Assembly (NCBI GenBank): GCA_016707895.1
Contig: JADJGV010000034.1
Span: 629,625-693,624, forward strand
Reading direction: 5' to 3'
Origin: Myxococcales bacterium
GTDB lineage: Bacteria > Myxococcota_A > Polyangia > Haliangiales > Haliangiaceae
DNA length: 64,000 bases
Part shown: one piece after another, positions 5,248 to 63,179 of the stretch
Numbering within the stretch: position 1 is the first letter of the stretch
Layout of the letters: every line of letters begins with the position of its first letter
Position numbers and translations under genes: made by a program
Notes under the pieces: model-generated
The model's input: the letters and a program-made list of their open reading frames with translations, nothing else
Told to the model about the DNA's origin: nothing
Databases searched by the model: none

Positions 5248-6432
5248 ATGTGCGACACGCTGGTGACGATCGCGCCCGGGCGCGTGCGGTTCGCCAAGAA
5301 CTCCGACCGCGATCCCAACGAGGCGCAGGCGCCGACGTGGCGGCCGGCGCGCGACCACGTCGCCGGCGCGCCGCTGCGCTGCACCCACGTCACGATCCCG
5401 CAGGTCGCGCACACCCACGCGGTCTTGCTGTCGCGGCCGTTCTGGCTGTGGGGCGCCGAGATGGGCGCCAACGCGCACGGCGTGGTGATCGGCAACGAGG
5501 CGGTGTTCACCGATCAGCCGTTCACCGCCGCCGGCCTCACCGGCATGGACCTGGTGCGGCTCGGGCTCGAGCGCGGCGCCACCGCGGCCGAGGCCGTGGC
5601 GGTGATCGAGGACCTGGTCGCGCGCCACGGCCAGGGCGGCGGCTGCGGCCACGAGCACCCCGGGTTCCGCTACCACGCGAGCTTCCTGGTCGCCGACGCC
5701 CGCGGCGCGTTCGTCGTCGAGACCGCCGGTCGCGCGGTCGCGGTGCAGGCGGTGGTGGACGCCGCGACGATCTCCAACGCGCTGACCCTGCCGGCGCTGC
5801 GCGGCCACCGCGATCGGCTGCGCTCGTGGGTGGCGGCCGCCGATCATCGGCAGGCGTGCACGCTGGCCGCGGCCCGGGCCGCCCGCGGCGTCGGCGATCT
5901 GTTCGCGGCGCTGCGCGACCACGGCGACGGCGACGACGGCGCGCGCCCGCGCTACCGCTGGCACCACGGCGCGATGGCGGCGCCGTGCATGCACGCCGGC
6001 GGGCTGATCGCCGCGTCGCAGACCACCGCGTCGTGGGTCGCCGAGTTGACGCCGGCCGGCGCGCGTCACTGGATCACCGCGACCGCGGCGCCGTGCTTGT
6101 CGATCTTCAAGCCGGTCGCCGTCGACGATCCGCTCGCGCTGGGCCCGCCGCCGCGCGATCGCGCCGACGCCGGCCTGTGGTGGCAGCACGAGCGCCTGCA
6201 CCGCCGGGTGATCGGCGACGCCGCGTGGTGCCGGACGATCGCCGCCGAGCGCGACGAGGTCGAGCGCCGGTGGCTGAGCGCGCCGCCGGCGCCGACCGCG
6301 GCCTTCGCCGAGCACCGCGCGCTGGTGGAGCGCTGGCTGGCGGCCAGCGCGGCCGCGCCGGTCGCCGACGATCGGCCGTGGTACGTGCGCCGCTACTGGG
6401 CGGAGCGCGACCGCCGCGCCGGCCTGGCGTGA
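5248..6432 (+). CDS. Ntn-hydrolase, peptidase C69 / acyl-CoA:6-APA acyltransferase-like (N-terminal nucleophile Cys2)
   Basis: Starts MCDTLV (Met-Cys nucleophile typical of C69/secernin-type Ntn hydrolases); protein-like composition over 394 aa. Confidence 0.7.
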   Translation: MCDTLVTIAPGRVRFAKNSDRDPNEAQAPTWRPARDHVAGAPLRCTHVTIPQVAHTHAVLLSRPFWLWGAEMGANAHGVVIGNEAVFTDQPFTAAGLTGMDLVRLGLERGATAAEAVAVIEDLVARHGQGGGCGHEHPGFRYHASFLVADARGAFVVETAGRAVAVQAVVDAATISNALTLPALRGHRDRLRSWVAAADHRQACTLAAARAARGVGDLFAALRDHGDGDDGARPRYRWHHGAMAAPCMHAGGLIAASQTTASWVAELTPAGARHWITATAAPCLSIFKPVAVDDPLALGPPPRDRADAGLWWQHERLHRRVIGDAAWCRTIAAERDEVERRWLSAPPAPTAAFAEHRALVERWLAASAAAPVADDRPWYVRRYWAERDRRAGLA

Positions 6433-6435
6433 GCC

Positions 6436-6545
6436 GGTTCCGTTTGGAGGGTTTGTCGCCAAACCCTCCCCCGCGGGGTCACGCCCCCGCGGGGCCCCCG
6501 CCCAAGACGCGAGACTCCCGGGCGACGTTCCGGAGGTGCGGCGTC
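6436..6545. repeat. REP-like intergenic repeat copy A (hairpin GGAGGGTTTG-tcgc-CAAACCCTCC, palindromic CCCCGCGGGG x2, core CCCAAGACGCGAGA)
   Basis: Shares hairpin and core motifs with copies at 47300-47400 and 62146-62400; lies in convergent 3' intergenic region. Confidence 0.7.
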
Positions 6546-6567
6546 ACGGCGCGATGAGCCGCCCCGA

Positions 6568-18667: not shown

Positions 18668-19903
18668 AGGGAGTCATCGTCCACGGCGCCCTGCTGGGCG
18701 TGATGCTGGTCTACGGCTACCGGACCTGGACCAAGGAAGAGGCCACCAAGCCGGTCGGCGGCGAGGTGGTGATGTGGACCCGCGGCGAGGCCGATCTCTC
18801 CAAGATCGAGTTCCAGACCGAGAACCGGCTGGTGCGCATCGAGCGTCGGGGCACCGGCGCCGCCGCGTACTGGTGGGGCAGCGAGTCCAAGACGATCAAG
18901 AAGCCCAAGCCGATCGATCCGCCGCCGCCGGCTGATCCCGCCGCGCCGCCGCCGCCGCCGCCGGCGCCGGAGTTCGTCGACGAGACCACGACCACCGAGT
19001 TCCCGATCGGCCCCGAGGGCGAGAAGCTGGTGAAGCAGTTCGCCCGGATGCGCGCGATCAAGTCGGTGGGCGTCCCGAAGGACGACAGCAAGAAGGACTA
19101 CGGCCTCGCCGACGCGCAGACGTCGATCGCGGTGGTGTTCGCCGACGGCGCCAAGACGCTGGTGGTCGGCGGCCGGGTGTTCGGCGGCGGCGATCGCTAC
19201 CTGCAGGACCTCGACACCAACAAGGCCTTCGTCGTGCTCGGCAGCCTGGTCGCCACCCTCGAGGGCGGCGAGCCCAGCCTGCGCCCGACCGACCTGCGCT
19301 CGTTCGACCCGAAGGCCGCGACCGCGGTCGAGGTGGCGGCCAAGGACAAGAGCAAGCGGGTGCAGAAGATCAAGGTCAAGGCGCCGGCGCCCGACGCCGA
19401 CGATCCGCACGCGCCGCCGCCCAACGCCGACGAGCTGATCGAGACCTGGGGCCAGGGCGCGACCGCCGACACCGTCGTCGCCAACTTCCTCGACAAGCTC
19501 GAGAAGCTGCGCCCGACCAGCTACGACGCGAAGCTCGACGTCGCGTCGCTCGAGCTGGTGGTGGCCGCGACGTACAAGGACGGCAAGGGCGCGCAGCTCG
19601 GCACGATCAAGCTGTACCGCCGCACCACGCCGGCCCCGGCCGACGCGACGCCGCCGACCCCGCCGGCCGACCCGACCAAGCCGGCGACGCCGGCCGCGCC
19701 GGCCGACCCGACCAAGCCGGCGACGCCGGCCGCCGCCGGCCGACCCGACCAAGCCGGCGACGCCGGATCAGCCGCCGGCCGCCAAGCCGGCCGACAAGGT
19801 CGAGTACTTCCTGTGGACCGAGCGCACCCGCGTGCCCGGCCTGCTGACCACGATGGCCGCCGAGCGCGTCGAGCAAGACGTGCCCACGCTGTTCGGTCAG
19901 TAG
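18664..19903 (+). pseudogene. DUF4340-domain protein (GldG-associated), reading frame interrupted by +1 shift inside a PADPTKPATPAA tandem repeat; plausible C-terminus (...VEYFLWTERTRVPGLLTTMAAERVEQDVPTLFGQ*) is in the +1 frame
   Basis: ATG overlaps gldG-like stop (ATGA). Two perfect 36-nt repeat units then a single extra G before the third unit; downstream frame-A text is R-rich nonsense while frame B reads protein-like to TAG at ~19903. Confidence 0.5.
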
Positions 19904-46894: not shown

Positions 46895-47299
46895 ATGGAC
46901 CTGCGCGCCATCCTCGAACGCAGCCGCACCGTCGCCGTCGTCGGCATCCACCACGACGCGGCGCGGCCGGCGCACTACGTGCCGGCCTACCTGCACGACC
47001 ACGGCTACCGCATCCGCGGCGTCAACCCGGCGCTGGTCGGGCGCGTGCTGTTCGGGCACCCGGTGGTCGCCACCCTGGCCGACGTCGACGAGCCGATCGA
47101 CCTGGTCGACGTGTTCCGCCGCGGCGACGCGCTGCCCGACCACCTCGCCGAGCTGCTGGCCTGCCCGGCGCCGGTGGTGTGGTTCCAGCTCGGCATCACC
47201 AACGATGCGGTGGCGGCGGCGCTGACCGCCGCCGGCAAGCAGGTGGTGCAAGATCGCTGCACGCTCGCCGAGCACCGCCGGTTGGGGCTGGGCGCATGA
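46895..47299 (+). CDS. CoA-binding domain protein (YccU/YneT family)
   Basis: RTVAVVGIHHDAARPAHYV...GYRIRGVNP pattern of CoA_binding_2 proteins. Confidence 0.8.
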   Translation: MDLRAILERSRTVAVVGIHHDAARPAHYVPAYLHDHGYRIRGVNPALVGRVLFGHPVVATLADVDEPIDLVDVFRRGDALPDHLAELLACPAPVVWFQLGITNDAVAAALTAAGKQVVQDRCTLAEHRRLGLGA

Positions 47300-47400
47300 G
47301 CTCTCTGGAAGGGGCTTTCGCAAAGCCCCTTCCCCGTCGGGTCATGCCCCGACGGGGCCCCAACCCGAAACGCGAGATCGTGTTCGGGGATCCGCGTGCT
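47300..47400. repeat. REP-like intergenic repeat copy B (hairpins GGAAGGGGCTTT-cgc-AAAGCCCCTTCC and CCCCGTCGGG-tcatg-CCCCGACGGGG, core ACCCGAAACGCGAGA)
   Basis: Two adjacent perfect stem-loops immediately after the CoA-binding gene stop; shares motifs with copies A and C/D. Confidence 0.7.
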
Positions 47401-47476
47401 GATCAACCCGGTGATCGCCGCGCGCCTGCGCGGGCCGATCCGCGTTGCTCCCAGGCCCGGCATCGGGCATGGTGCC

Positions 47477-48517: not shown

Positions 48518-48614
48518 GAGCGATCGAGTACGCGATCGCTCTGACACCGCCACCGCCACCGCCACCGCCCAGCTCTCGTCCCGGGGCTGGGCTCGTCGGG
48601 GACCGCCCCAGGTC

Positions 48615-50852
48615 TCAGAACTTGTAGGTCGCGCCGACGCGGGCGTAGGTGTTGTAGTCGGTCGTCAGCATCGGCTGGTTGAAGTCGTCGACGAACAGCG
48701 CGCGCTCGCTCTGGAACGGGGCGCCCTCGAGCATGACCCACAGGTTCCAGCGCTGGCGCAGCGCGATCTCGGCGATCACCGCGGTCATCAGCCGGACGCC
48801 GCCGTCGCGGCTGAAGAAGTCGTTGCCGCTCTCGCCGGTGAGGTCCTCGACCCGCTTGGCCTCCTCGGCCGTGTAGCCGTCGGCCATCGGCGCCGGGCCG
48901 CCGGCGCGGTGCAGGTACTTGGTGCACGCGGCGATCGGATCGCCGTCGAACGGCATCGCGTCGGTCGGCGCGACGCCGCTCTTGAGCTCGGGGCAGTGGC
49001 GGTCGCTCCAGAACTCGAGGTAGGCGCGGGCGCTGACCGTGACGTGGGTGAACGCGGTCAGCGACGCGACGCCGCCGGCGCTGAACGTCGCGCCGTTGCG
49101 CTTGGAGTCGTCGAACAGCTTCGAGCCCCACCACAGGTTGCCGAACACGCCGGCCGAGAACGGGTCGTTGTCGACCAGCTGGAACCGCGCGCCCAGGCCG
49201 ATCTCCGAGCGCTCGATCATCGAGCGCACGCCGACGTTGGCGTCGAAGCCGATGCCGGACTTCTTGCCGGCGCCGACCGCGACCCGGACGTCGAAGAAGT
49301 ACGGGTAGCCCAGGCTGATGTCGACCGTCGACCGGCCGCGCGGCATCGTCCGCGCGCCCCACGACGCCAGGCCCCGCTGCTGGGCCTTGAGCTGGTCGTC
49401 GGACAGGCCCTCGACCTTGAGCGTCGCCGAGACGATGTCGCTCTTGCCGCCCTCGAGCATGTGGGTCTCCTCCCACGGCTGGTAGCCGGCCTTCTGGACG
49501 CGGATGATCGTCGTGCCGACCTCGATCTCGGTCAGCTCGAGCGGGGTCACGCCCTGGGGCAGGCCGTTGATCATGACCTCGGCGCCGGGCGGATCCGACA
49601 GCACCCGCAGCCGGGCCACGGCCTTGAGGTCGGCCGACACCGTCAGGGTCTGGCCCTCCTCGAGGCGGACCTTGGTCTCGAAGGTCTTGTAGCCGGCCAG
49701 CTTGACCACGACGAAGTGATCGCCGCGGGCGACCTGCTTCTCCTGCGGCACCTTGCCGATGCCGGCGCCGTCGAGGAAGACGTCGGCGTCGGGCACCGCC
49801 GACAGCACCTTGAGCGTGCCCTTGCCGCCGGCCCCGGCCTCGGCGTTGAGGTCGAGCTTGAGCACGGTCGACTGGCCGTCGTTGATCGTGATGCGCTCCT
49901 CGTGCGGCTGGTAGCCGGGGGCCTTCACCTCGAGCACGTGGTCGCCGCCCTTCACCTGCTTGATGTCGAGCGGCACCTTGCCCATGGGGGTGCCGTCGAG
50001 GAAGACCTCGGCGCCGGTGACGTTGGACAGCACGCGGATGGTGCCGCCCTGGCCGCCCAGCGTGGCCTTGAGCTCGCCGCGCACCTTGGCCTGCTGCCCG
50101 GCCAGCACCTGGATGGTCTGCTTCCACGGGATCGCCGGGTCCTTGCGCAGCTCGACCACGTGCAGGCCCTCGATCACGTCGTTGAGCACCAGCGGGGTGG
50201 TGCCGTTCTGCTTGTTGCCGTCGAGGTACACCTCGGCGTCGGCGACGTCGGCCTCGACCACGATGATGCCGACCTTGGGCTTGGCCACCGCCTTGAGCAC
50301 CGGGGTCAGGTTGGCCTTCTCGTTGTCCTTGACCTCGACCCAGGTCTGGAAGTTGTCGAAGCCCTCGCGCTTGAGCTCGACCAGGTGGCGGCCGGCGGTG
50401 GTGGTGAGCAGCACCGGCGCCGAGCCCTGGGACTGGCCGTCGAGGTAGACCGTCGCGCCGAAGACGTTCTGATCGGCGTCGGCGCGGATGTCGATGCGCG
50501 GCGGGTCGACCTTCTTGATCAGCGGGATGAAGACGCTCTGCACCTTGCGGGTGCGGGCCACCTTCTGGTTCTTCTGGGCCAGCTGGTAGCCGTCGAGCTC
50601 GACGATGATCAGGTAGTCCCCGTTCTTCATCTTGCCCTGCCACGGGGTCACCCCGACCGCGCCGAGCTCCTTGCGGTCGATGTAGATGGTGGCGCCGGGC
50701 GGGGCCGACTCGATCTTGACGGGGTACTTGCCGCCGGACAGGGCGGGGTGGCTCTGGGCCGCGGCCGGACCGGCCAGGCACAGCGCCACGATCGCGAGCG
50801 CAAAGATCGACGCGCCGCGGAGCCAGCGCAGAGGCAACTCGGTGAGCTTCAT
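48615..50852 (-). CDS. PEGA-domain repeat protein with C-terminal outer-membrane beta-barrel-like region
   Basis: Signal peptide MKLTELPLRWLRGASIFALAIVALCLAGPAAAQ; multiple PEGA-like repeats (A.V..DG..G.TP......G.H...L...GY); C-terminal ...YKF typical OMP terminus; codon usage distinct (Lys-rich). Confidence 0.8.
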   Translation of the reverse strand: MKLTELPLRWLRGASIFALAIVALCLAGPAAAQSHPALSGGKYPVKIESAPPGATIYIDRKELGAVGVTPWQGKMKNGDYLIIVELDGYQLAQKNQKVARTRKVQSVFIPLIKKVDPPRIDIRADADQNVFGATVYLDGQSQGSAPVLLTTTAGRHLVELKREGFDNFQTWVEVKDNEKANLTPVLKAVAKPKVGIIVVEADVADAEVYLDGNKQNGTTPLVLNDVIEGLHVVELRKDPAIPWKQTIQVLAGQQAKVRGELKATLGGQGGTIRVLSNVTGAEVFLDGTPMGKVPLDIKQVKGGDHVLEVKAPGYQPHEERITINDGQSTVLKLDLNAEAGAGGKGTLKVLSAVPDADVFLDGAGIGKVPQEKQVARGDHFVVVKLAGYKTFETKVRLEEGQTLTVSADLKAVARLRVLSDPPGAEVMINGLPQGVTPLELTEIEVGTTIIRVQKAGYQPWEETHMLEGGKSDIVSATLKVEGLSDDQLKAQQRGLASWGARTMPRGRSTVDISLGYPYFFDVRVAVGAGKKSGIGFDANVGVRSMIERSEIGLGARFQLVDNDPFSAGVFGNLWWGSKLFDDSKRNGATFSAGGVASLTAFTHVTVSARAYLEFWSDRHCPELKSGVAPTDAMPFDGDPIAACTKYLHRAGGPAPMADGYTAEEAKRVEDLTGESGNDFFSRDGGVRLMTAVIAEIALRQRWNLWVMLEGAPFQSERALFVDDFNQPMLTTDYNTYARVGATYKF

Positions 50853-60520: not shown

Positions 60521-61213
60521 GTGACGCTGCGCGCGATCCTCTTCGATCTCGATGGCACCCTGGTCGACAGCGAGGCCGACTACGCCGAGGCCATCGCCCG
60601 CTGCGTCGCCCGCGAGTTCGCGATCACGCTCACCGCCGCCGATCGCGCCTACGGCACCGGCCGCTCGTGGGTCGCGATCCACGCGTACCTGCGCGAGCGC
60701 TACCCGGCGCTGGCCTGGGATCGCGACGCGTTGATCGCCGCGACCGCCGCCGAGAGCCGGGCGCTGTTCGCCGAGCGCGGCATCACCGTGCTCCCCGGGG
60801 CCCACGCCGCGGTGGCGCGGTTCGACGCCTTCGCCCGGGGCCTGGTGACCGGCAGCTCGCGGGCCGAGGCCGGGCACATGCTCGAGCTCCTGCGCCTGAG
60901 CGACGCGTTCGCGATCACGCTGTGCGCCGAGGACGTGCCGCGGTCCAAGCCGGCGCCCGACGGCTACCTGGCGGCGTGCGCCCACCTCGGCGTCGCGCCG
61001 GCCGAGGCGCTGGTCATCGAGGACTCGGCGGCCGGGTGCGCCGCCGGCCGCGCCGCCGGCTGCGCGGTGGTCGCGGTGCGGGCCGGCAACCGCGGCGGGC
61101 AAGATCAGGGCGCGGCCCACGTCGTGGTCGACACCCTCGACGCGATCACCATCGAGCTGGCCCACGAGGTGGCGCGATCGGTCGACCGTGGGTATGGTGC
61201 GCCGACGGCATGA
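60521..61213 (+). CDS. HAD-IA family hydrolase (phosphatase/beta-phosphoglucomutase-like)
   Basis: ILFDLDGTLVDS motif I, VTGSS motif II, IEDSAAG motif III; GTG start assumed at VTLRAILFD. Confidence 0.75.
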   Translation: MTLRAILFDLDGTLVDSEADYAEAIARCVAREFAITLTAADRAYGTGRSWVAIHAYLRERYPALAWDRDALIAATAAESRALFAERGITVLPGAHAAVARFDAFARGLVTGSSRAEAGHMLELLRLSDAFAITLCAEDVPRSKPAPDGYLAACAHLGVAPAEALVIEDSAAGCAAGRAAGCAVVAVRAGNRGGQDQGAAHVVVDTLDAITIELAHEVARSVDRGYGAPTA

Positions 61214-62142
61214 AGCTCCCGCCGCGCGTCACCGTGTACGAGGTCGGGCCCCGCGATGGCCTGCAGAACGAGGCGCGGCACGTGCCGACCGCCGAGAAGA
61301 TCGCGTTCATCACGGCGCTGATCGACAGCGGCCTCTCGCGCATCGAGATCACCAGCTTCGTCAGCCCCAAGTGGATCCCGCAGCTGGCCGACGCCGCCGA
61401 GGTCGCGCGCGGCGTGCCGCGCAAGGAGGGCGTCGTGCTGTCGTGCCTGGTGCCCAACCGCCGCGGGCTCGACACCGCGCTGGCCGCCGGGATGCGCGAG
61501 GTCGCGGTGTTCATGTCGGCGTCGGAGACGCACAACAAGAAGAACGTCAACAAGACGATGCGCGAGACGCTGGCGGCGTTCGCCGACGTCGTGCCGCCCG
61601 CGCTGGCCGCCGGCGTGCCGGTGCGCGCGTACCTGTCGACGTGCTTCGGCTGTCCCTACGAGGGCGACGTCGATCCCGCGGTGGTGGTCGAGCTGTGCCG
61701 CGAGCTGCGGGCGATGGGCGTCTACCAGGTCTCGGTGTCCGACACGATCGGCGTCGCCAACCCGGCGCAGGTCGAGGACGTGCTCAGCCGGGTGCTGACC
61801 GAGGTGCCGCTCGAGGCGGTGGCGGTGCACTTCCACGACACCCAGGGCACCGCGCTGGCCAACTGCGTCACCGCGCTGCAGCTCGGCGTCACCACGATCG
61901 ACTCGTCGGTCGGCGGCCTCGGCGGCTGCCCCTACGCGCCCGGCGCCTCGGGCAACCTCGCCACCGACGATCTGGTCGGCATGCTGCACTCGATGGGCAT
62001 CGCGACCGGCATCGATCTCGACAAGCTGGTCATCGCCGCGCGCCAGGCCGCCACGTTCATCGGCCACGACCTGCCGTCGAAGTTCCTCAAGGCCTACCTC
62101 GGCAAGCAGGCGCGCGCGCGCCGCCGCGCCGAGCTGGGCTGA
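61210..62142 (+). CDS. Hydroxymethylglutaryl-CoA lyase
   Basis: VGPRDGLQNE, TSFVSPKWIPQ, HFHDTQG, GLGGCPYAPGASGN motifs; ATG overlaps HAD stop (ATGA). Confidence 0.9.
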   Translation: MKLPPRVTVYEVGPRDGLQNEARHVPTAEKIAFITALIDSGLSRIEITSFVSPKWIPQLADAAEVARGVPRKEGVVLSCLVPNRRGLDTALAAGMREVAVFMSASETHNKKNVNKTMRETLAAFADVVPPALAAGVPVRAYLSTCFGCPYEGDVDPAVVVELCRELRAMGVYQVSVSDTIGVANPAQVEDVLSRVLTEVPLEAVAVHFHDTQGTALANCVTALQLGVTTIDSSVGGLGGCPYAPGASGNLATDDLVGMLHSMGIATGIDLDKLVIAARQAATFIGHDLPSKFLKAYLGKQARARRRAELG

Positions 62143-62145
62143 GAC

Positions 62146-62400
62146 ATGCGGAGGGTTTCTCGCGAAACCCTCCCCCCGGCATTCGCCGGGGCCCCCCTCC
62201 CAAGACGGCCCAGATCCTCGGCGCGTCTGTCCGAGCCTTTCGCTGGGGCCGAAACGGCCGAAGGCCGGATCCGCGTGGACCCGGCCTTCGTCTCGCAGTC
62301 TCCTGTGCCCCGTGCCGAACGCTCTCGCGTTTCGGGTGGGGGCCCCACGTCTTGTGGGGGAGGGGCTTTGCGAAAGCCCCTCCAGGAAACAGGATCTCAG
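62146..62400. repeat. REP-like intergenic repeats, copies C and D in inverted (tail-to-tail) orientation, with additional hairpins between them
   Basis: Forward copy: GGAGGGTTTC-tcgc-GAAACCCTCC, CCCCGGCattcGCCGGGG, CCTCCCAAGACG. Reverse copy (as revcomp): GGAGGGGCTTTcgcAAAGCCCCTCC ... CCCACAAGACG ... ACCCGAAACGCGAGAGCG. Confidence 0.7.
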
Positions 62401-63179
62401 CCGCCGATCTGCCACTCGCCGCCGACGCGGACGTAGACGTTGCCGCGCAGCTCCCAGCGCACCGGCGCCCAGCGGTGGCCGGCCTTGGCGCGCTCCCAGT
62501 GGCCGGGGACCCACTCGTACTGGCGGGCCTGCTCGCTCCACGCGTAGGCGCCCTCGATCCAGACGTAGCCGCGGCGCGCCGCGCCGGGGTTCTCGACGCG
62601 CGGCGGGGGCGGCGCCATCGTCGGACCGACGATGACGACCTGGCCGCCCGACGAGATCACCGTGCCGGCGCCGTTGGTGGCGATCACGCCGCCCTGGCCG
62701 TTGTTGACGATGACGCCGCCGTTGCCGCCGACCACGCCGCCATTGCCGCCCACCACCACGCCGCCGCCACCGGGCTGGTCGTAGCGGTGATCCTGGTTGT
62801 GCGGATCGATCACGGTGCCGCCGCCGCCGCCGGTGACGACCACGCCGCCGCCGACCACGACCCAGCTGCCGTCGACCCAGTGCCAGCTACCGTTGCGCGG
62901 CTCCCAGCGGCCGTCGTTCCAGGCGTAGCCAGAGCGCTCGCGCTCCCAGTGGCCATCGACCCACACCCACTGGCCGCCCTGCCACTGCCAGTTGCCCTTG
63001 ACCCACACGTGGCCGCTCATCGGCTGCGGGTTCTCGGCGCGCGGGGGCGGCGGTTGATCGTAGGCGACGACGGCGCCAGTGGCGATGCGGCCCCGGGCCG
63101 TGACGACGCAGGCGGGGAGCGTGGTGCCGAGCAGGGCCGCGAGGCCCAGGGTCGACAGGATCCGACGGGTACGGTTCAT
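62397..63179 (-). CDS. Lipoprotein with internal Trp-rich repeats (W..G.W.WV.G.W) and Gly-rich (GGNGGV) repeats
   Basis: AAGGAG RBS 7 nt upstream of ATG; lipobox TLPAC; repeated YVW..G.W.W / HWER modules. Confidence 0.7.
   Translation of the reverse strand: MNRTRRILSTLGLAALLGTTLPACVVTARGRIATGAVVAYDQPPPPRAENPQPMSGHVWVKGNWQWQGGQWVWVDGHWERERSGYAWNDGRWEPRNGSWHWVDGSWVVVGGGVVVTGGGGGTVIDPHNQDHRYDQPGGGGVVVGGNGGVVGGNGGVIVNNGQGGVIATNGAGTVISSGGQVVIVGPTMAPPPPRVENPGAARRGYVWIEGAYAWSEQARQYEWVPGHWERAKAGHRWAPVRWELRGNVYVRVGGEWQIGG

Follow-up and report, generated by a model that had tools for sequence, protein, structure and literature searches.

The 254-nt spacer (62143-62396) between the stop codons of an HMG-CoA lyase-like (HMGL-like) gene and a convergent WXXGXW-repeat lipoprotein-like gene of a Myxococcales bacterium probably consists of a native segment of ~50 nt with a terminator-like hairpin, to which two independent insertions of a non-autonomous, lineage-specific repeat of ~100 nt have been added. 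The tail-to-tail geometry of the two repeat copies is a by-product of two convergent genes each gaining a unit. Units of this repeat are gained and lost between strains, lodge at stop codons in the sense orientation, stack in tandem and can supply a working stop codon.

The features of the spacer and the further copies of the repeat are collected in Table 1. In the window, i.e., the whole stretch of 64,000 nt that was analysed, the covariance model of the repeat (R1) matches exactly four copies, designated A to D. Copies C (+) and D (-) both lie in the spacer, which confirms the forward and reverse copies placed there tail-to-tail by the initial annotation. The additional hairpin that had been noted between them is also found (CGAAGGCCGGATCC/GGACCCGGCCTTCG, 62259-62290), with 14-nt arms that are 93% complementary. 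The spacer folds with -148.6 kcal/mol on the (+) strand and -156.9 kcal/mol on the (-) strand, against means of about -115 and -118 kcal/mol for dinucleotide shuffles, corresponding to z-scores of -6.46 and -7.27, respectively. Since none of the 200 shuffles folds as well, the self-complementarity is well above chance for DNA of 72% G+C, in agreement with the earlier description of a highly structured segment of ~250 bp. In separate folds the units and the central hairpin are each structured on their own; the native core with the central hairpin has z-scores of -3.5 (+) and -5.0 (-). This hairpin is most likely the original terminator-like hairpin for both genes. No U-tract terminators are predicted in 61900-62700, including the position of the central hairpin. 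Rfam 15 gives no match at gathering score in the window, a permissive scan of the spacer returns only chance matches below threshold, and ARAGORN detects no tRNA or tmRNA. The C-terminus of the HMGL-like lyase is the same as in its relatives.

Table 1. Repeat copies of the window and features of the spacer between the convergent genes (positions on the forward strand of the window).
Feature	Position	Strand	Remarks
Copy A, R1 match	6431-6516	+	60.2 bits
Repeat unit A	6433-6554	+	directly past the stop (6430-6432) of a C69-dipeptidase-like gene
Copy B, R1 match	47293-47379	+	76.8 bits
Repeat unit B	47297-47411	+	leader TGA 47297-47299 is the stop of a CoA-binding-domain gene
HMGL-like gene	61210-62142	+	stop TGA 62140-62142
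Copy C, R1 match	62135-62216	+	40.6 bits, E 1.4e-7
Repeat unit C	62146-62249	+	104 nt; 40.6 bits; fold z -3.2; indel in L074
Unit C, hairpin 1	62150-62173	+	
Unit C, hairpin 2	62174-62191	+	
Unit C, C-rich core	62192-62214	+	
Unit C, 3' hairpin and tail	to 62249	+	
Native spacer core	62250-62297	.	kept in L074 without unit C; contains the central hairpin
Copy D, R1 match	62321-62398	-	94.8 bits, E 6e-20
Repeat unit D	~62298-62396	-	~99 nt; near family consensus; 94.8 bits; z -6.35
Unit D, hairpin 1	62359-62383	-	
Unit D, hairpin 2	62343-62358	-	
Unit D, core	~62321-62344	-	GGGGCCCCCACCCGAAACGCGAGA
Unit D, 3' part	to ~62298	-	GAGA-loop hairpin, tail ...GGAGAC
WXXGXW-repeat lipoprotein-like gene	62397-63179	-	stop complement 62397-62399

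Copies of the repeat were detected using blastn-short, followed by R1; a generic repeat finder was swamped by high-G+C noise. The consensus structure from RNAalifold missed hairpin 2, and the structure was given to the model by hand. Species-representative genomes scanned for exact matches to the pattern of the 3' core, GGGGCCCCNNCCCRARACGCGAGA, contain at least 66 loci, and among the loci listed nearly all belong to two activated-sludge MAGs, Myxococcales 'new MAG-81' (JAEUJY01) and Kofleriaceae (JAGPCY01). The fetched loci contain 87 R1 copies. The window itself matches contig CAXWNE010000036.1 of MAG GCA_964269055.1, and database proteins identical to those of the window carry the label Myxococcales bacterium. 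A search of viral contigs for the core motif gives 0 matches.

The units, as defined by empty-site indels and the alignment, are 99-118 nt long and contain three different hairpins. The 5' part consists of a short leader with its own TGA and a conserved hairpin 1, GGAGGG(K)CTTT-CGC-AAAG(M)CCCTCC, with the joint consensus ..TGAGACCTTGGAGGG.. for leader and hairpin. Hairpin 2 is hypervariable, with lengths from 17 to more than 60 nt, and is always framed by CCCC and GGGG. It is followed by a conserved, unpaired core, GGGGCCCCCACCCGAAACGCGAGA, and by a third, variable hairpin with several tails, such as ...CTGATCAACCC or ...GGGAGAC. The family consensus contains no T-run. Compensatory changes in hairpins 1 and 2 amount to 67 double-change cells versus 25 in shuffles, and 93% of the cells are paired versus 33-73% when the partner is slid. 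The pair swaps include U-A to G-C in 30 sequences, A-U to G-C in 19 and G-C to A-U in 11. The copies are paralogous to one another, so the counts trace back to a small number of changes at the subfamily level and not to many independent events. The mismatch spectrum comprises 8 G-U and 4 A-C mismatches, too few to separate RNA-level from DNA-level structure.

The modules of the unit vary in content and number. The hairpin-2 slot can hold unrelated inserts (L074:4074-4197, L017:962-1028, L020:267-382, L051:1479-1602 and L066:209-332) and behaves like a hypervariable cargo site; the inserts read in L074 and L017 are ~60 nt long, and no gene-sized insert is seen in those five loci. The 3' half of the unit (core, third hairpin and tail) often occurs in two to three tandem repeats with periods of ~52-79 nt (L059:1390-1500, L028:840-946, L029:1739-1893, L042:465-700, L013, L015 and L071), and the 5' half (leader and hairpin 1) is duplicated by itself in L001:5078, L014, L009 and L051. 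At 19660-19766 of the window a 36-37-nt unit (CCGCCGGCCGACCCGACCAAGCCGGCGACGCCGG) is repeated in tandem, in three nearly identical copies that have no relation to the present finding. The repeat is also present on contigs binned to Phycisphaerales, Ideonella and Ferruginibacter MAGs (L029, L031 and L056). One of these, L029, is 89% identical to a MAG-81 contig (L019) over 2.7 kb, and at least this one looks like a misbinned contig from the myxobacterial lineage; the repeat could thus serve as a binning marker for the lineage.

For a comparison of the spacer between strains, loci encoding close relatives of the lyase were fetched from metagenomes. The sister strain in L074, with a lyase that is 98% identical, reads ...GGCTGAGAC|CGAAACGGCCGAAGGCCGG... 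at this position: unit C is precisely absent, as a clean 104-nt indel, and the central hairpin and the flanks are intact. On the lipoprotein side of L074 the stop codon is adjoined by a unit with a 61-nt hairpin-2 module and the tail ...GATCAACCC, followed by TGC, past which lies an older, internally deleted unit with a tail that is orthologous to that of D. The newer-looking unit of this tandem is thus nearest to the stop, and the decayed unit lies downstream. In L076 and L077 (87% identity) no unit is present and the spacer is 95 nt long. In the window, copy C is flanked on the left by GCTGAGAC, which the 3' end of the unit on the right, GCTGGGGC, resembles. Copies C and D belong to different subfamilies, with differences in both hairpin 1 and hairpin 2 and with R1 scores of 40.6 versus 94.8 bits. 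On the basis of these strain and subfamily comparisons, the native spacer was ~50 nt long with one hairpin, and each gene gained its own unit.

The locus L075 (91% identity) carries a different repeat family with a similar architecture behind both stop codons, reading GGAGAGGTCTG-TCAC-CAGACCTCTCC and then TCGCCGGGG-TCAG-GCCCCCGGCGA. The layout at L075:3350-3520 comprises the stop, a short leader, a conserved hairpin, a second hairpin of the CCGGGG type and a C-rich core. Judged from the sequence, this common layout suggests a superfamily with lineage-specific sequences.

Filled and empty sites can be compared for copies A, B and C of the window. At the site of copy A, the spacer between the convergent dipeptidase-like and GFA genes measures only 7-13 nt in loci fetched from two related lineages, MAG-81 among them; in the window it contains an insert of ~118 nt and, in addition, a duplicated TCACGGCGCGA, an extra local duplication of 18 nt. 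Unit A lies between two copies of TGAGCCG (6430-6436 and 6555-6561). The site of copy B is empty in four fetched sister-strain loci, which read ...GGCGCGCCGCTGCCGCGT TGA TCGCCGCGCGCC. Unit B replaces 12-13 nt of coding sequence, such that the CoA-binding-domain protein of the window (134 aa; region 46895-47414) ends with ...GLGA*, whereas every homologue ends with ...GLGAPxxR*; the host protein has become 4 C-terminal codons shorter and uses the TGA of the element as its stop. The native TGATCGCC... follows directly after the 3' end of unit B, and the original TGA survives at 47412-47414. The absence of A, B and C from close relatives implies that the element is, or was, mobile.

The junctions vary between the copies: C is clean, A has the extra 18-nt duplication and B exchanges 12-13 nt. 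Direct repeats of 3 to 11 nt that include the stop codon are found for A, B, C and L031, the latter having GCGCTGAGCAC on both sides. A TGA occurs within 1-4 nt after 8 of the 17 copies with a t2 or t4 tail (p ~8e-9), and most others have TGC, TGT or TGG at this place. In internal tandem copies the leader position is occupied by TGA, TGT, TGG or CGA; this variation indicates that the leader TGA is an integral part of the repeat and erodes wherever it does not act as a stop. The common junction pattern is TGA-unit-TGA, or a one-base variant of it, and a target duplication of 3 nt (TGA) is possible. A general target duplication of 7 nt is not significant, with 15 of 65 copies versus 10.4 +/- 2.7 in controls. 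At the ends that the empty sites delimit for A, B and C, terminal inverted repeats are absent, the two ends not being mutually reverse-complementary. Folding predicts a short stem that closes the unit for A, B and D, and none for C. A tblastn search with a single distant query, E. coli RayT, gives no match in 950 kb of element-rich loci. An ORF between two divergent copies in L035 has a size that fits a RAYT, but its sequence, judged by eye, resembles a Wza-like polysaccharide-export protein, and the candidate was rejected. Two further readings were likewise discarded: a tandem in-frame backup stop, as the left-to-right TGA distances of 115 and 125 nt are not multiples of 3, and a SECIS or read-through element, against which the copy number and the variable spacing argue.

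The position of the units relative to coding sequences was determined with ORFs called by a G+C-frame criterion, and the public gene calls were reproduced at this locus. All four copies of the window start 8-14 nt past a stop codon and are co-oriented with the upstream gene. For 58 of the 71 primary copies, the distance from the last base of the stop codon of a co-oriented coding ORF to the start of hairpin 1 is -15 to +15 nt, with a mode of 7 nt; the chance level is 2.4% of strand-specific spacer positions (p ~4e-81). There are 11 copies without a qualifying stop nearby, several of which are full units that are separated from the stop by a partial hairpin-1 unit lying directly next to it. The downstream gene is co-directional in ~60% and convergent in ~40% of the cases, at times at a distance of only 30-150 nt. 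The stop codons beside units are TGA in 51, TAA in 3 and TAG in 4 cases, compared with 251, 14 and 99 for neighbouring genes without units, and TAG is thus depleted at unit stops (4/58 versus 99/364, p 4e-4). Genes that end with Phe (TTC TGA) are enriched ~7-fold among the hosts (11/58 versus 10/364, p 1.6e-5; loci L007-L072), which points to an effect of either sequence context or gene class. The Phe-ending hosts include two SSB genes (DDDIPF and DDDLPF) and several outer-membrane-like proteins. On the (-) strand of the window, at ~48540-48625, a gene ending with ...ATYKF* is followed by TGAGACCTGGGGCGGTCCCC, which matches the commonest leader, TTCTGAGACCT, with no recognisable unit behind it; from its sequence, this stretch could be either a natural target-like site or a relic.

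The stop-adjacent position would also be expected if the units were host-selected cis-acting RNA elements, e.g., terminators, 3'-end stabilisers or modulators of translation termination, placed by function and not by targeting. As the primary explanation this seems rather unlikely. It is consistent with the very stable hairpins that start 0-15 nt past the stop, with the conserved unpaired core, and with the orthologous copies that are found across species (L001/L014 and L009/L021), on account of which some copies are regarded as old and may be kept for host function. In high-G+C bacteria, hairpins that lack a U-tract are believed to act as terminators. According to PMC12306157, REPs located within 15 nt of a stop codon affect translation in E. 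coli by stalling ribosomes and lowering translation. On the other hand, the units have no U-tract, close strains lack copies A, B and C at these loci, and a modal distance of 7 nt could arise by selection alone only from a very large number of random insertions. In addition, units occur within the groES-groEL operon, where the spacer carries 1.5 and ~2.5 units in L009:3700-4300 (-) and L021:2400-3100 (-), respectively; the groES-groEL genes of these two related MAGs are ~92% identical and differ in unit number. Because units are present inside this operon and 30-150 nt upstream of co-directional genes, they are not efficient obligatory terminators. An intrinsic (Rho-independent) terminator was rejected, as the units lack a U-tract and are not confined to the ends of transcription units. 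The bidirectional terminator proposed in the initial annotation fits the native central hairpin best. A cis-acting RNA role is nevertheless compatible with a mobile element, for which it would be a secondary function gained by exaptation. The transcript of an inserted unit would make up the initial ~100 nt of the 3' UTR, and by analogy with E. coli REPs a hairpin 0-15 nt past the stop might shield the 3' end of the mRNA or delay ribosomes at termination.

It is much less probable that the units are multicopy genes for trans-acting small RNAs derived from 3' UTRs. The three-hairpin fold and the conserved unpaired C-rich stretch, which would act as the seed, are compatible with such RNAs. Against it stand the lack of Rfam matches and of promoter-like or U-tract terminator sites, the occurrence of at least tens of copies per genome that are all tied to stops, the hypervariable hairpin 2, and the frequent truncated or tandem partial units.

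Least credible is the proposal that all 254 nt make up a single composite mobile element, either a BIME/REPIN-like pair of REPs or a MITE with C and D as its terminal inverted repeats: C and D are indeed mutually inverted and the entire segment is strongly self-structured, but L074 lacks C and retains the central hairpin with a different set of units at the D end, hairpins 1 and 2 and the score are not the same in C and D, the units have no GTAG or CGTC head, and no other convergent pair within a single spacer is present among ~90 copies. On its outside the supposed composite is bordered by the two stop codons, which are inverted relative to each other and do not constitute a target duplication; direct repeat-like sequences are found at the ends of single units only. 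Of the mobile miniature element suggested initially, the small mobile repeat is retained and the movement of the composite as one unit is abandoned.

The individual units share several properties with REP and BIME elements: they are short, G+C-rich, hairpin-forming and of high copy number, occupy extragenic positions at gene 3' ends, in operons and between convergent genes, and are built from mosaic or tandem modules. The differences are nonetheless substantial. The basic REP/BIME unit is an imperfect palindrome of 20-40 nt, compared with ~100 nt and three hairpins here, and neither of the REP heads GTAG and CGTC (PMC3733652) is present in the consensus of the leader and hairpin 1. Unlike REP/BIME, the units have a strict polarity with respect to the upstream gene. 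REP/BIME elements go with a cognate RAYT gene, which REPs usually flank, and for the units the E. coli RayT query matched nothing in the 950 kb. Stop adjacency applies to 82-90% of the units versus ~11% (446/4,072) to about half (260/496) of the E. coli REPs, according to counts quoted in PMC12306157. The recurrent unit of BIMEs and REPINs is an inverted REP pair, whereas here the two halves are gained and lost independently and only one convergent pair is known. With MITEs such as Correia/CREE, ERIC and RUP the units have in common that they are non-autonomous, structured, ~100-150 nt long and subject to insertion polymorphism at the strain level; the terminal inverted repeats and the parent insertion sequence of MITEs are not found for the units, and as a target duplication of fixed length only a 3-nt TGA seems possible.

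Similarities also exist with the palindrome-associated elements derived from IS200/IS605, which likewise have subterminal hairpins, lack inverted repeats and insert in one orientation beside a short specific motif, which here contains TGA; a regular target duplication is absent from those elements and not evident for the units. The motif is reminiscent of the ISDra2 target, TTGAT. In contrast to IS200/IS605, the orientation of the units follows the gene and not the replication strand, as illustrated by C and D, which are opposite at one locus; furthermore, TGA is present at both junctions of the unit, and no TnpA or RAYT was detected. The mycobacterial MIRUs are likewise interspersed, oriented with transcription, located in operon spacers and overlapping with the stop of the upstream gene. 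They are described as containing small ORFs that couple this stop to the next start, whereas the present family consists of hairpin modules that no start codon follows.

For the mobile repeat itself, the absence of terminal inverted repeats makes a single-strand (HUH-type) or site-specific mechanism likelier than that of a DDE-type MITE. Insertion would hit the TGA directly, and each junction would then carry TGA or a variant of it with one base changed. TGA specificity combined with purifying selection does not fully explain why other TGAs in the spacers are avoided, so that a coupling to translation termination, or recognition of a longer target sequence, may play a part. A tentative extension, which we regard as possible though not probable, is that the units represent an undescribed mobile element that homes to stop codons, inserting in the sense orientation at TGA and bringing its own replacement TGA, such that the host protein stays intact. 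As a speculative route, the element might act on the single-stranded non-template DNA that would be exposed where translation stops and transcription continues. Stop homing, if it occurs, would explain the position and polarity of the units and a possible gene-class bias, as seen for groES, the two SSB genes and the Phe-ending genes.

Small hairpin repeats at gene 3' ends are already known, and the termini of REPs can provide stop codons to flanking ORFs (PMC3733652). What is new about the present family is its architecture and lineage, an almost absolute adjacency to stops in the sense orientation, a TGA that each unit brings along, and a hairpin 2 that is modular and hypervariable; our literature search found no description of a myxobacterial family with these properties. 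In these MAGs, the units account for long structured spacers, strain-level indels, altered C-termini, as for copy B, and contigs that look misbinned. If the targeting is real, a selfish repeat would have reached a high copy number in a gene-dense genome by using the one position where an insertion of 100 nt is nearly harmless, with its own stop codon repairing the damage. Co-occurring strains would then provide a natural set of many genes that either have or lack a strong hairpin 0-15 nt past the stop. Such a set could be used to test how hairpins influence the termination of translation, the rescue of ribosomes and the decay of mRNA in bacteria of high G+C content.
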